IMG/VR virus record: IMGVR_UViG_3300028586_000071
Span: 1-26,033 of that record
Length of the DNA: 26,033 bases
Source of the DNA: a virus
Lineage: Duplodnaviria; Caudoviricetes
Reading direction: 5' to 3' (one strand)
Shown here piece after piece: positions 5,137 to 13,667 of this stretch (the first letter of the stretch is position 1; each line of letters starts with the position of its first letter). The notes beneath the pieces are model-generated. The model was not told the origin of the DNA. It did no database searches and was given only the letters and a program-made list of their open reading frames with translations. A program made the translations under genes and the position numbers.

Positions 5137-5169
5137 GGCTAAACCTAAAAAATATTTCAGGCTGAACCT
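5114..5169. promoter_or_regulatory. OL: three repressor operators
   Basis: AGGCATAACCT (5114-5124), AGGCTAAACCT (5136-5146), AGGCTGAACCT (5159-5169); quasi-palindrome AGGYTNARCCT shared with OR. Confidence 0.85.
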
Positions 5170-5184
5170 AAGTTGGGTTATGAT
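5156..5184 (+). promoter_or_regulatory. Putative rightward promoter overlapping the third OL operator, pointing into the structured segment
   Basis: TTCAGG (5156-5161)-17 bp-TATGAT (5179-5184); good -10, weak -35. Confidence 0.45.
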
Positions 5185-5188
5185 TGCC

Positions 5189-5480
5189 TTATCGGCCGGT
5201 TTCGGCTGGTTGCAGGTCTGGGGCAGGGAGGGGAAACCGCCGACGCCCAGGCTGAAGATGCCAAGGAAGCCGGAAGGGCAACGCGTGGGTGATAGTTCGT
5301 AGAGCGCGCCGGGGGAACAGGTGGAAGCACCTGGAAAGTCTGCGAAAAGCGAAAGTGTCCGAAGGCGAAAGCATGGGATGCAGGCGCTCTCCACGAAAGC
5401 GAGTCTTTTTGACTGGCCTTTAGGGAGGGTGCCGCTCTGGAACCGAGGCTCTGCTGGGATCAAGCAAAACCGATAACCCT
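5189..5480 (+). ncRNA. Putative structured RNA / ColE1-RNA II-like primer-origin element
   Basis: No credible ORF; purine-skewed plus strand. Stems GTCTGGG/CCCAGGC, TTCGT-AGAGCGC/GCGCTCT-CC-ACGAA, CAGGTG-GAAG-CACCTG, AGTC-T5-GACT, TTATCGG/CCGATAA. Confidence 0.55.
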
Positions 5481-5557
5481 AGAACACCTGGTTGATCAGC
5501 CAAGAACAAGAACCTCAACAGTACCTATAGAGGGTGCGCAGAAAAAAAGGCCCGAAA

Positions 5558-5899
5558 ATGCCGGAAAATTTGACCCTCGCGGTCTACCTGGAACGCCGCG
5601 GCTCGGTGAAAGCGCTGACGCGAATCGAGGCCGAAGTATTCGGGGTGCCGTACCCGCTGGTGAAGGGCTGGGCGACAAGGCTCGGCGCCATGAAGATCAC
5701 GCAGGAGATGCTGGACCATCTGCAGGAAAAAATCGGCTGCGTGAACTCAGCAACGGCCGCGCGTGCCCGCCGAGGGCTGGATGGCGCCGAGCGCCCGCAG
5801 CCGGCGCCTGCTGTGGCACTGACTCCACGCGAGGAATACTTGATCGACTGCGCATGCAAGCGCGTGGTCGATCAGCTGCAGCAGGCCGGGCGCATATAG
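5558..5899 (+). CDS. Hypothetical protein, 113 aa (alternative GTG start 5534)
   Basis: GC3-rich codon usage like other phage genes; followed by a hairpin at 5898-5927. Confidence 0.75.
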   Translation: MPENLTLAVYLERRGSVKALTRIEAEVFGVPYPLVKGWATRLGAMKITQEMLDHLQEKIGCVNSATAARARRGLDGAERPQPAPAVALTPREEYLIDCACKRVVDQLQQAGRI

Positions 5900-7011: not shown

Positions 7012-7680
7012 TCAAATACTCGGCCTAAAAGCCGATTTAGGAATGTGACCAAGTACCAGGTGGAGCGCCGTGATCTCCTCGATGTCGACGATGATGTTCG
7101 GGAAGTCTTTGTTCACCGATTCAAAGCATGCCTGCTCATCTCGCTTCCACAGCAGCCGTTTGATCATTCGGCGCCCGTCCTCGAGCAGCACGATCACCTC
7201 GTCGCTGGGGAAGACATCCGCGCAAGGGTCCACGCCCACGAACTCGCCTGGCAGATACCGAGGACTCATGCTCTCGCCGCGCACGCGCAGCGCGTAGGCC
7301 TCAACGCAGGACGTGTACCAGGCCATGTAGCCCTCCGGGTGCTCCGGAGGGAAATCGTCGATGTGAAGCAGCCCATCGGCGCCGGCCTGTACGCGGCCAG
7401 CCACTGGGATCAACCGCGGGGTAGCGACGATTGCCGGCGCGTCGTCGAGTTCGCTCCCAGCAGGGCCGCCGTCTTCGGAACGAGGAATCTCGCCCATCAA
7501 TTCCGAAAGGGACATATTCAGCCGCTTGGCTAGAGCCGGTAGTTTCGATGCTTCAGGCATGAACTTGCCACGCTCCCAGTCGGATACGTTGACCGACTTG
7601 ATGCCCCAAATATCCGCAATGTTCTGCTGAGTCAGCCCAAGCTCTTTGCGTCTCTGTTTAAGTATTTGCGGAAATTTCAT
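7012..7680 (-). CDS. cI: CI-like repressor (XRE HTH + S24 autopeptidase)
   Basis: LKQRRKELGLTQQNIA...VSDWERG HTH; VQAG cleavage site; GESMSP catalytic Ser; IKRL catalytic Lys. Confidence 0.96.
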   Translation of the reverse strand: MKFPQILKQRRKELGLTQQNIADIWGIKSVNVSDWERGKFMPEASKLPALAKRLNMSLSELMGEIPRSEDGGPAGSELDDAPAIVATPRLIPVAGRVQAGADGLLHIDDFPPEHPEGYMAWYTSCVEAYALRVRGESMSPRYLPGEFVGVDPCADVFPSDEVIVLLEDGRRMIKRLLWKRDEQACFESVNKDFPNIIVDIEEITALHLVLGHIPKSAFRPSI

Positions 7681-7681
7681 A

Positions 7682-7740
7682 AGGCTAAGCCTATCAAAAA
7701 TAATTCAGGTTAAGCCTTGACTTGATATTAGGTTTAACCT
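7682..7740. promoter_or_regulatory. OR: three repressor operators
   Basis: AGGCTAAGCCT (7682-7692), AGGTTAAGCCT (7707-7717), AGGTTTAACCT (7730-7740). Confidence 0.88.
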
Positions 7741-7746
7741 GATACT
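7717..7746 (+). promoter_or_regulatory. PR promoter
   Basis: TTGACT-18 bp-GATACT, with an operator in the spacer. Confidence 0.7.
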
Positions 7747-7752
7747 GTGCCC

Positions 7753-8007
7753 ATGAACACTCAAATCAAAGAGGCGCTTGACCGCGCCGGCGGCGTTGCT
7801 GCAGTCGCCGCCCACTTTCAGATCAGCCCCGTCTCCGTCTACGAGTGGATCAAGCGCGGCCTGGTCCCAGCTGAAAAGTGCCCGGAGATTGAAAAGCTCT
7901 CGGGGGGCGCTGCCCGATGCGAGGAGATGAACTGTCGTGTCGACTGGGGATATTTGCGCACCCCCGCATCTCCCACGAGCCAGCCCGGCCCAGCCACTGC
8001 GGACTAG
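7753..8007 (+). CDS. cro: Cro-like regulator (YdaS/Cro superfamily)
   Basis: AGGVAAVAAHFQISPVSVYEWIKRGLVPAEKCPEIE...VDWGYLR; divergent from cI. ATG 7753 preferred over GTG 7747. Confidence 0.92.
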   Translation: MNTQIKEALDRAGGVAAVAAHFQISPVSVYEWIKRGLVPAEKCPEIEKLSGGAARCEEMNCRVDWGYLRTPASPTSQPGPATAD

Positions 8008-8745: not shown

Positions 8746-9030
8746 ATGAGCAATGCAACCGCAGCCCCAGTGGGCGAGACCGCCGAGGCGTTCAATCCGG
8801 CCGCGCTGCTGGACACGCTGATCACGACGCTGCGCCTGAAGAACGACGCGCGCCTGGCGGCCGCGCTGGAAGTGGCGCCGCCGGTGATCAGCAAGATCCG
8901 CCACGGCCGCCTGCCGGTGGGCGCTTCGATGCTGATCCGGATGCACGAGGTGAGCGAGATGTCGATCCGCGACCTGCGCGCCCTGATGGGCGACCGCCGC
9001 AAGCAGTTCCGCGCGGCCGGGTCGATGTAG
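8746..9030 (+). CDS. Small XRE-like HTH protein
   Basis: LKNDARLAAALEVAPPVISKIRHG HTH; RBS GGAGG. Confidence 0.85.
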   Translation: MSNATAAPVGETAEAFNPAALLDTLITTLRLKNDARLAAALEVAPPVISKIRHGRLPVGASMLIRMHEVSEMSIRDLRALMGDRRKQFRAAGSM

Positions 9031-11488: not shown

Positions 11489-12220
11489 ATGGGAAGCATG
11501 CTGACCCTGCCCCACACTGGCGCCGCCGAGCAGACGATGTCGAGCCGCGAGATCGCCGACATCTGCGAGGCGCGCCACAACGACGTCATCGCCACGATCG
11601 AGCGCCTGATCAACGAGGGGGTTTTACGACTTGGTCGTAATACTGCCCGTGCGCACGTGCCCGACGGCGGCGGCCGGCCGACGATGGTCTATGACCTGTG
11701 CCGCCGCGACTGCCTGGTGGTGGTCTCGGGCTACAACGCCGCGCTGCGCGCCCGGATCATCGATCGCTGGATGGAACTGGAAGCCGCGGCGCCGGCGCTG
11801 GCATTGCCGCAATCGTTCGCCGCCGCGCTGCGCCTGGCCGCCGACCAGCAGGACATCATCACCGCCCAGGCCGCGCAGCTGCAGGCCGCGGCGCCGGCGG
11901 TGGAGTTCGTGGAGCGCTACGCCGACTCGACCGGCACGAAGGGCTTCCGCCAGGTGGCGAAGCTGCTGGGCGCCAACGAGAACCAGTTCCGCGAGTTCCT
12001 GCTCGACGAGAAGATCCTGTATCGGCTCGGCCGCGAGCTGACGCCGCATGCCCAGCACATCACCGCCGGCCGCTTCTGCGTCAAGGCCGGCACCGCCCAG
12101 GTCAGCGGCCACGCCTACAACGCCGCGCGCTTTACCCCCAAGGGCGTGACCTGGGTGGCGGGCGAGTGGGCGAAGTGGCAGCTGAAGCAGAAACAGGCGG
12201 GGGAGGTGGCCTATGGTTGA
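11489..12220 (+). CDS. Antirepressor-like protein: Rha N-terminal + KilAC/ANT C-terminal domain
   Basis: TMSSREIA...HNDV...SGYNAALRARIIDRWMELE; LPQSFAAALRLAAD; APAVEFVE...FTPKGVTWV. Start ATG 11489 with AAAGGA RBS. Confidence 0.9.
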   Translation: MGSMLTLPHTGAAEQTMSSREIADICEARHNDVIATIERLINEGVLRLGRNTARAHVPDGGGRPTMVYDLCRRDCLVVVSGYNAALRARIIDRWMELEAAAPALALPQSFAAALRLAADQQDIITAQAAQLQAAAPAVEFVERYADSTGTKGFRQVAKLLGANENQFREFLLDEKILYRLGRELTPHAQHITAGRFCVKAGTAQVSGHAYNAARFTPKGVTWVAGEWAKWQLKQKQAGEVAYG

Positions 12221-12893
12221 CCGTGCATCCCTGCGCCAGATGGCTGAGACCATGCCGGCGGTGCTGGTCGACGCGGCGACGCTGATCGAGCTGCTGGACG
12301 CTGCCGACCGCGCGACGAAAGCCAAGGCGCCGCGCGCGCCGCGTCAGGCCAACGACGATGACGAGAAGTGTGCGCGCTGGCTCTACGGCGCCATCCTCAA
12401 CACCGCCCCCAAGTTCAAGGAACCGAACTTCAAGGCCTGGGCCAACGAGGTGCGCCTGATGCGCGAGCGCGACGACCGCACGCACCGTGAGATGTGCGAA
12501 CTCCTGCAGTGGGCACACACCATCCCCTTCTGGCGCGGGAACATCCTCAGCCCGGCGAAGCTGCGCGAGCACTGGGACCGCCTGACGATCCAGCGTGACG
12601 CTGCGGCCGCGCCGAAGCCGGCCGCCACCGCGCCATGGTGGACGAGCGAGGCGGCAAAGCTGGCTAAGGCGAACGAGGTGGGGGTCGGGCCCGCGCGTAT
12701 TGGTGAATCGACGGCAGCTTGGGAGACGCGCATTCGCGCGGCGATCGACAATGGCGGGAAGCCGCCGGCGCCCCAGGTGCGCATCCGGCCCACGGCCGAC
12801 GCGGCAAACACGCAGGAGCAGCGCGGCATGATGCCGGCCGGGCTCAACCTCAAGGCCTTGATTCGCCCAGCGCCGCCCCCGAGGGCTGCATGA
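12213..12893 (+). CDS. Replication protein with lambda-O-like C-terminal domain only
   Basis: PNFKAWANEVRLMRERDDRTHREMCELLQWA...FWRGNILSPAKLREHWDRL closely follows the lambda O C-terminus as recalled; only ~45 aa precede this domain. Confidence 0.85.
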   Translation: MVDRASLRQMAETMPAVLVDAATLIELLDAADRATKAKAPRAPRQANDDDEKCARWLYGAILNTAPKFKEPNFKAWANEVRLMRERDDRTHREMCELLQWAHTIPFWRGNILSPAKLREHWDRLTIQRDAAAAPKPAATAPWWTSEAAKLAKANEVGVGPARIGESTAAWETRIRAAIDNGGKPPAPQVRIRPTADAANTQEQRGMMPAGLNLKALIRPAPPPRAA

Positions 12894-13192
12894 CGCTACA
12901 AACCTCGGGCTGGTCAGGTAGCAACCGACGCGGAGACGACATCTGCGCCATGTGCGAGAACCTGACCACAAAGGGCCATCCGGAACACATGGCGCGCGGG
13001 GAGGGACGGTGCACTGGATACGACGGCAGCTTTACGCCCCTGGCAAATCCGTTTGTCACCTGGGACACCGCTGCGTGCGTCCTCTTCACGCGCGCCCTGG
13101 GGAGCGATGCCCGCGCGGCGCGGGAGCGCTGGATCGAGAAGCAGCAAGCCAAGAGCGAAAACAATGATGTCCAAACTGAAACGAAAGGATGA
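12890..13192 (+). CDS. Cys-rich hypothetical protein, 100 aa
   Basis: Start ATG 12890 (ATGA overlap); CAMC...C...C pattern. Confidence 0.75.
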   Translation: MTLQTSGWSGSNRRGDDICAMCENLTTKGHPEHMARGEGRCTGYDGSFTPLANPFVTWDTAACVLFTRALGSDARAARERWIEKQQAKSENNDVQTETKG

Positions 13193-13193
13193 G

Positions 13194-13667
13194 ATGATCG
13201 ATTCGCATGAGAAGGAAGTGCTTCGTCCGCTGCCCGGCGTGAAGCCGACCAACCCGAAAGACATGGCCGGCGTGCGCAAGGCGCCGATGTCGACGGTGCC
13301 CGCAAACGTGCTGGTCGAGATCGGCGTGGCGATGCTGGAGGGCGCCAGTAAGTACGGTCGCCACAACTACCGCGCTGTGGGCGTGCGCGGCTCCGTCTAC
13401 TACGACGGCGTGATGCGCCACCTCATGGCCTGGTGGGAAGGCGAGGACCTGGACCCGGATTCGGGCATGTCGCACGTGACGAAGGCCATCACCTCGCTGG
13501 TGGTGCTGCGCGACGCGATGATGCAGGGGAAGTTCACGGACGACCGGCCGCCGCGTGCACTGCCGTTCTTCCCGACCCTGAACGCGGGCGCCGCCGATAT
13601 CATCGACCGGTACGCCGACCGCCAGCCGATCCACTACACGATCAGCTTCACCGGGCTGGCGGCATGA
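13194..13667 (+). CDS. dATP/dGTP diphosphohydrolase domain protein (DUF5664-like)
   Basis: NPKD...K.PM...GASKYGRHNYR...YYDGVMRHL.AWWEGEDLDPDSGMSH signature; start ATG 13194. Confidence 0.85.
   Translation: MIDSHEKEVLRPLPGVKPTNPKDMAGVRKAPMSTVPANVLVEIGVAMLEGASKYGRHNYRAVGVRGSVYYDGVMRHLMAWWEGEDLDPDSGMSHVTKAITSLVVLRDAMMQGKFTDDRPPRALPFFPTLNAGAADIIDRYADRQPIHYTISFTGLAA

Follow-up and report, generated by a model that had tools for sequence, protein, structure and literature searches.

Introduction

Lambdoid replication is taught as a process in which an initiator protein binds iterons. RNA-dependent phage origins are also known (T4, c2-type phages, mycobacteriophages), and RNA-based origins occur in MRB plasmids as well (PMC3035462). 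The c2-type phages have three mutually dissimilar types of origin, with a non-coding early transcript (PMC7150918), and in the RNA-DNA hybrid of ColE1 an rG/dC tract is essential (PMC4412123, PMC5043065). Replicons of the ColE1 type are reported from gamma-proteobacterial orders (PMC8683028).

The DNA analyzed here is a stretch of 26,033 nucleotides (the window), a 26-kb virus record that is 33% complete. An initial annotation had proposed that it contains an RNA-primed phage origin resembling ColE1 RNA II and silenced in the lysogen, an arrangement of which its author knew no example in lambdoid phages. The claim of novelty holds in part: RNA-dependent phage origins as such are described, but no repressor-gated RNA origin for lytic replication in lambdoid phages was found in the literature.

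Results

The Window and Its Relatives

The window contains a tRNA gene, an integrase gene, a leftward early operon, cI, cro and cII-like genes, a Rha/Ant gene, an O-like gene, and terminase, portal and capsid-region ORFs. Its named relatives are Massilia prophages, and the element-bearing phages considered here integrate. The tRNA gene (37-124) adjoins the integrase gene and is the likely attachment site. In two relatives (L107:13337-16677, from G133, and L248) the left early operon carries genes for a reverse transcriptase, an Avd-like protein and a protein with an Lcl_C domain, which suggests a diversity-generating retroelement whose target is not a tail gene.

Relatives were gathered through the small ORF downstream of the element (ORFx) and through DNA patterns, giving 84 merged loci, some of them near-duplicates and some found via ORFx. 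The element is carried by 52 of these loci, as type I in 29, type II in 10, type III in nine and a divergent type IV in four. The other 32 all lack the left-arm marker genes too, so that the slot is probably not covered in them; every close relative with a covered slot has the element. Searches with blastn gave no match of the element in phage records and only short chance matches in plasmids, while a type II element matched phages twice, over 22-23 nt, and plasmids not at all. Covariance model R1, built for type I, matched four of 151 genomes of the family and one of 151 of the order. Input to the R1 screen comprised 81 of 98 metagenome and five of 29 viral matches to 20-mer patterns, five earlier distant loci and eight further identifiers; 22 of the pattern matches screened with R1 had the seed match only and were read as chance. 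The features of the locus are collected in Table 1.

Table 1. Features of the element and of its surroundings in the window.
Feature	Position	Strand	Basis or remark
Three palindromic operators AGG-N5-CCT, OL-type	5114-24, 5136-46, 5159-69		Between leftward early operon and element
Putative rightward sigma-70 promoter	5156..5184	+	Inferred by reading the sequence
Type I structured RNA element, about 270 nt	5191..5460	+	Alignment A7, pair counts, model R1
5' hairpin P1	5191..5210	+	Double changes at 5/8 pairs
Stem P2, enclosing upstream G-tract GGGAGGG (5226-32)	5216..5252	+	A7 pair counts
P5 (5298-5303 with 5339-44), internal loop, apical CAGGTG/CACCTG hairpin (5318-33)	5296..5346	+	A7
Stem P7 with small inner hairpin	5355..5381	+	97% paired, one-sided changes only
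Outer stem P9 around variable T-loop hairpin (5399-5417), ending in G-tract GGGAGGG (5423-29)	5383..5433	+	
Conserved 3' tail including GGAACC (5439-44)	5435..5460	+	Alignment
Conserved AGTACC-containing motif ahead of the ORF, common to type I and II elements	5520..5539	+	
ORFx, small basic protein, 113 aa, no known family	5558..5899	+	
cI-type repressor (7012-7680, minus strand), OR operators, cro	7012..8007		
Lambda-O-type initiator cut to C-terminal domain (226 aa)	12213..12893	+	Profile match

The Predicted Structured RNA Element

The segment had been described as free of any credible ORF and rich in nested stems. Its open frames indeed match no Pfam or PHROG family, and the core lengths of the 29 type I copies span all three frame classes (12, 6 and 11 copies). 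All the motifs named in the initial annotation are present where it placed them, and covarying helices are found in alignment A7, which holds 29 distinct type I copies. A model of 13 helices, drawn from the same A7 sequences and hence favored by the test, pairs 93.5% of its cells and shows double changes at 20 pairs. Shuffles reached this percentage in 0 of 500 cases and this number of double-change pairs in 3 of 500, and slid controls were 31-44% paired. The single sequence of the window folds only modestly better than shuffles (z -1.97). Within the helices G-U cells number 219 and A-C cells 29, which identifies the plus strand as the folded one, as the first reading had it.

The individual stems fared differently. 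The GTCTGGG/CCCAGGC stem is 92.6% paired in A7 and has covariation support, the CAGGTG hairpin is 99.4% paired with three double-change pairs, and the T-loop hairpin is also supported, although variable (73% paired). By contrast, the proposed long stem (5296-5307/5384-97) is not conserved, being 70.8% paired with eight of its 12 pairs showing only breaking changes, and its arms have other partners. One of them forms P5, with 10 and four double changes at two pairs; the other (5383-89) pairs with 5427-33, is 100% paired and at two of its pairs shows 11 and 13 double changes. The stem thought to close the whole structure (5189-95/5470-76) likewise lacks conservation in the alignment as read by eye, and its 5' arm belongs to the local hairpin P1. 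P2 also occurs in the distant copies L226 and L250 and in some type II and III elements. All 29 type I copies contain GGGAGGG two or more times, 187-200 nt apart, which is reminiscent of the rG/dC tract needed in ColE1; in the distant copies the two G-tracts are not identical to each other. By analogy with ColE1, the 3' tail is a candidate for the RNA-DNA switch region. Two possible pseudoknots, one of them pairing 5309-14 with 5435-40 (99% paired), are near-invariant and, having no double changes, unproven.

An Rfam search of the window returned nothing besides the tRNA, and the element has no match. A resemblance to RNase P was considered and discarded, as thresholds up to E 10 gave chance matches only, among them RNase P at 7.5 bits. 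The literature searched holds no description of this RNA; the supplements of PMC5737381 and PMC10690425 (files 1, 2, 4), which may list the motif, lay outside that search. Contigs from RNA libraries cover the element in all six runs, for example a 257-nt contig at 5312-5562, but these runs were selected by this very stretch and the contigs, in which DNA may be present, carry no strand, start or level, so that they do not establish transcription. Many short contigs of this kind (8865-9001, two runs) fall in an HTH gene at 8746-9030 and probably stem from a chromosomal homologue. We regard the element, predicted to fold as RNA, as a genuine family of structured RNAs that is operator-gated and so far uncatalogued.

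Putative Promoter and Operators

The proposed overlap between an operator and the promoter of the element is supported. The putative promoter consists of a -35 box TTCAGG (5156-61), a 17-nt spacer that contains the third operator, and a -10 box TATGAT (5179-84), and predicts a transcript start near 5190-91. The -10 positions are nearly invariant in alignment A2; the -35 box matches the consensus at three of six positions, falls under the threshold of the promoter scan and was hence not listed by it. Three like palindromes (7682, 7707, 7730) lie on the OR side, between cI and cro. Across 51 loci the operator region tracks the phage's own OR region, with which it shares a mean of 4.8 9-mers, compared with 0.9 for the OR regions of other phages, and at least one 9-mer is shared with the own OR in 43 of the 51.

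Comparison With ColE1 RNA II

The similarity to ColE1 was assessed with a set composed of one real record (L002) and nine related origins. The resemblance noted in the first reading is visible by eye against L002, but none of the pairwise, profile and covariance-model tests was significant. In local alignments to ColE1 under five scoring schemes, 143-546 of 1000 shuffles reached the score; profile HMMs of the element and ColE1 gave 0 bits or less in both directions; model R1 found only the CAGG hairpin on ColE1 (5.6 bits); and a ColE1-only covariance model placed the element fifth of 27 hits on the window (E 0.53). Run on 16 loci, this last model gave 47 weak matches, of which 18, counted by hand among sequences related to each other, fell on the sense strand of the elements, which makes up about 3% of the bases searched. 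Such sense-strand matches were seen in 11 of the 14 type I-like loci, and most of them were in register with the model; the best had E 0.053.

A descriptor of the features shared with ColE1 was also tried. It recognized 28 of the 29 type I elements, nine of 10 ColE1 sequences and a single shuffle out of 5000, and among 4470 seeds it picked out nothing else; having been written after both sets were seen, and failing five of six distant copies, it is not counted as evidence.

The Occupants of the Slot

The slot is shared by other RNAs. The Rfam family Betaproteobacteria-1 (RF02932) matched five of nine tested loci, four of type II and one of type III, and had no match in the tested loci of type I, L033 among them, or type IV; on the window it gave none at its gathering score of 49.4 bits or at E up to 10. 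At least two RNA classes without mutual match fill one slot. Rfam classes Betaproteobacteria-1 as an sRNA gene, and the motif goes unnamed in the accessible main text of PMC5737381. It was found in eight of 151 genomes of the family, including Tn7-like elements, and a helicase-primase prophage (L387) carries it together with an ORFx homologue. In the Tn7-like (tniB/tniQ) elements it lies at the 3' end of tniQ, in convergent orientation (L386:6986-7106, L389:14302-14418 and L390, the last placed there from its near-identity to L389).

The 3' part of all nine type III elements (L048, L049, L131, L140, L147, L151, L153, L157, L158 and kin) contains GAAGCGG, a motif present in one of the 29 type I copies. 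We take GAAGCGG to be primosome-assembly-site-like; it also occurs about 160 nt beyond the ColE1 origin in L002. Type III elements are followed by DUF5710-like or ORFx-matching ORFs. Two loci (L283, L332) are chimeras in which a 5' module of type I is joined to a body of type II, and so reveal that recombination took place at the P2 junction.

These data bear on the possibility that the RNA is an early regulator, either a put-like antiterminator or leader with which rightward transcription would cross the moron/cI region in antisense, or a decoy that acts in trans on host defense. As the first transcript of a promoter that appears to be operator-gated, the element would suit such a role; the terminator scan found no terminator-like site on the plus strand from the element to 6573, and Betaproteobacteria-1 is an sRNA gene in Rfam that also occurs in non-phage elements. 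However, put has about 70 nt and is far exceeded by a multi-branched fold of 270 nt, the interval between element and cI differs by several kb among the phages, and the distant copies L226, L227 and L250 have no such position. Since the truncation of the initiators described below would also go unexplained, we regard a regulatory role as clearly unlikely.

The distant copies raise a second question, namely whether the fold acts as single-stranded DNA, that is, as an ssi signal recognized on the plus strand by a primase or primosome. L226 and L227 start directly after genes for a helicase and a Toprim primase, and comparative folding cannot tell single-stranded DNA from RNA (PMC5737381, in its accessible part). 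This reading is nevertheless very improbable, given the 219 G-U cells tolerated in the helices and a fold that starts, in all element types, about 6 nt past the conserved -10 box.

The Downstream Protein

ORFx follows 27 of the 29 type I and all 10 type II elements, and is absent after two of the 29 type I and all four type IV elements. Its N-terminal domain of about 80 aa is also found fused to HNH nucleases, N-terminal to their HNH domains (P0091), and to DUF5710. No match was obtained by tblastn, a structure model (pLDDT 69) gave a best Z of 3.9 and no Foldseek match at E 0.001 or better, and in the Atlas only unnamed clusters under 0.9 were found. In one locus (L005:8780-9310) the type I RNA and ORFx are separated by an HNH-type ORF whose N-terminus looks ORFx-like by eye.

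Such fusions make it conceivable that the RNA and ORFx are a ribonucleoprotein cassette that descends from a mobile element with an HNH nuclease or still behaves as one. The RNA would then serve as scaffold, guide or ribozyme, and ORFx would be the N-terminal, RNA-binding remnant of a protein that has lost its nuclease. The HNH-type ORF of L005 (motif by eye) fits, as does L250, where the RNA lies between terminase and portal and is followed by an HNH gene, and the unit of RNA and small ORF is spread over phages whose replication modules are of three kinds, L387 included. Set against this, the element is present in all covered close relatives under operator control, as would be expected of a core function rather than of a selfish insert; an HNH gene adjoins it only in L005 and L250, the nuclease being missing from most copies; ORFx itself is missing in the cases given above; and no retron, intron, ribozyme or HEARO family of Rfam matched, nor does a reverse transcriptase gene adjoin the element. 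As the truncated initiators are not explained either, a cassette of this origin seems to us rather unlikely.

Replication Genes of the Carriers

The initiator of the window matches phrog_391 only over positions 176-281 of 298 and phrog_277 only over 206-307 of 318. Matches to phrog_391 in 11 of 24 records are all restricted to positions 168-285, and the short initiators that were tested match only the C-terminal halves of two different initiator families. With length classes assigned by BLAST label and length, the initiator has 155-242 aa in 38 of the 44 element-bearing loci with the slot covered and 303-388 aa in the other six; these counts cover element-bearing phages, so that the link between element and truncation is an apparent one. 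DnaC-like and DUF6475 proteins are found as partners. No primase, polymerase or replicative helicase was detected among 149 scanned early-region representatives of 12 near-complete records (of 165 candidates with at least 90 aa, from early regions only, with genes called by a custom script).

The association has exceptions. The same type IV element accompanies a short initiator in one phage and a full one in another (L119, L170), the L250 phage has a complete DUF1376 initiator elsewhere in its genome, and the phages of L226 and L227 encode full helicase-primase modules. G283, whose sequence ends just past the repressor, has no element and carries a full initiator plus lambda P. A gene with a dATP/dGTP diphosphohydrolase domain (13164-13667) adjoins the truncated initiator in the window and is common in the relatives.

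Discussion

The reading that we prefer is that the element is a repressor-gated, transcript-dependent lytic origin, analogous to those of c2 phages and ColE1, a proposal for and against which the balance seems to us level. The N-terminal half of the initiator is lost in most carriers, and the RNA therefore likely opens or primes phage DNA replication. A replication role has indirect support from the truncated initiators, the interchangeable RNA types in the slot and the distant copies behind a primase gene, and a non-coding region lies behind an early promoter (inferred here), as is the case in RNA-dependent phage origins. The collinear order of the ColE1 3' modules, the weak in-register matches and the lack of a primase, polymerase or replicative helicase in the early regions scanned also count in its favor. 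Of the readings considered, it is the only one to account for position, interchangeable types and truncated initiators together. Full-length initiators coexisting with the element in six of 44 loci speak against it, as do the position of L250 between terminase and portal in a phage with a complete initiator and Betaproteobacteria-1 beside tniQ (L386, L389), where no origin is expected; moreover, the phages of L226 and L227 encode a primase and would not need an RNA primer.

In the proposed sequence of events, repressor bound to the operator at 5159-69 would shut the rightward promoter in the lysogen. After induction the RNA would fold during synthesis and stay hybridized to its template around the 3' G-tract, possibly helped, as in ColE1, by the identical upstream G-tract. 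The resulting R-loop would give a primer or expose the displaced strand, and the C-terminal domain of the initiator, with a partner of the DnaC, P or DUF6475 type where present, would load the host helicase there. We propose that, with the helicase loaded at an R-loop, the N-terminal origin-binding domain of the initiator became dispensable. ORFx may bind the RNA or the displaced strand, and elements containing Betaproteobacteria-1 would be a second, interchangeable type of origin.

A more far-reaching version holds that a clade of integrating lambdoid phages exchanged its O/iteron origin for a repressor-gated primer RNA that has a common ancestor with the 3' domain of ColE1 RNA II, that two or more initiator families lost their origin-binding domain, and that Betaproteobacteria-1 is a second, interchangeable class of primer RNA, which would give the orphan motif a function; as a whole, we consider it doubtful.

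If the preferred origin reading is correct, a widespread group of betaproteobacterial prophages begins lytic replication from a folded transcript gated by the repressor, which would explain their half-length initiators and hint at what the orphan Betaproteobacteria-1 motif does. It would also provide an inducible, Rep-free replicon for Massilia-type hosts. Should the function be another one, there would still be a multi-helix RNA family that no catalogue lists, together with a partner protein that has no known fold.

Compared with ColE1 RNA II, the element is likewise a non-coding structured transcript from an upstream promoter (putative here), and the order of the 3' half is alike: a stem with a GAGCGC internal loop and a CAGG/CCTG hairpin, an outer stem with an inner hairpin, a G-tract and TGGAA. 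The P5 domain is collinear with the like domain in the ColE1 consensus fold, and both RNAs have two similar G-tracts (928 and 1175 in L002; 5226 and 5423 in the element). They differ in size, the element having about 270 nt and ColE1 RNA II about 550 nt; the distance from the predicted start at about 5191 to TGGAA (5438-42) is about 250 nt, and the pre-primer has about 550 nt. Additionally, the element has the extra branch P7, and control is apparently exerted by the phage repressor, neither RNA I nor Rop having been found. As to an antisense RNA I, a consensus scan, which a weak promoter could escape, detected neither a promoter-like site on the minus strand of the element nor anything like a terminator at the element's 5' end. 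At best the element would work like ColE1, and its membership of that group is not supported.

The T4 origins oriF and oriG also combine a promoter with a persistent RNA-DNA hybrid downstream of it in a phage, but they use an unwinding element and the phage's own replisome, and the accessible text describes no conserved RNA fold (PMC4412123). Cluster A mycobacteriophages are temperate, have no Rep protein and need a region of non-coding RNA; there, however, it maintains a plasmid prophage beside parABS and is dispensable in lytic growth (PMC7157519), whereas the phages described here integrate and their element is apparently repressed in the lysogen. In the Ceduovirus (c2-type) phages, the non-coding PE1 transcript comes from the first early promoter and dissimilar types occupy one slot (PMC7150918). 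In contrast to the present phages, these are lytic Lactococcus phages without a repressor, whose origin activity was shown experimentally. Finally, although the type I element fails the Betaproteobacteria-1 model, it shares with that RNA the slot, the promoter position and the downstream ORF, and often the same 5' hairpins.
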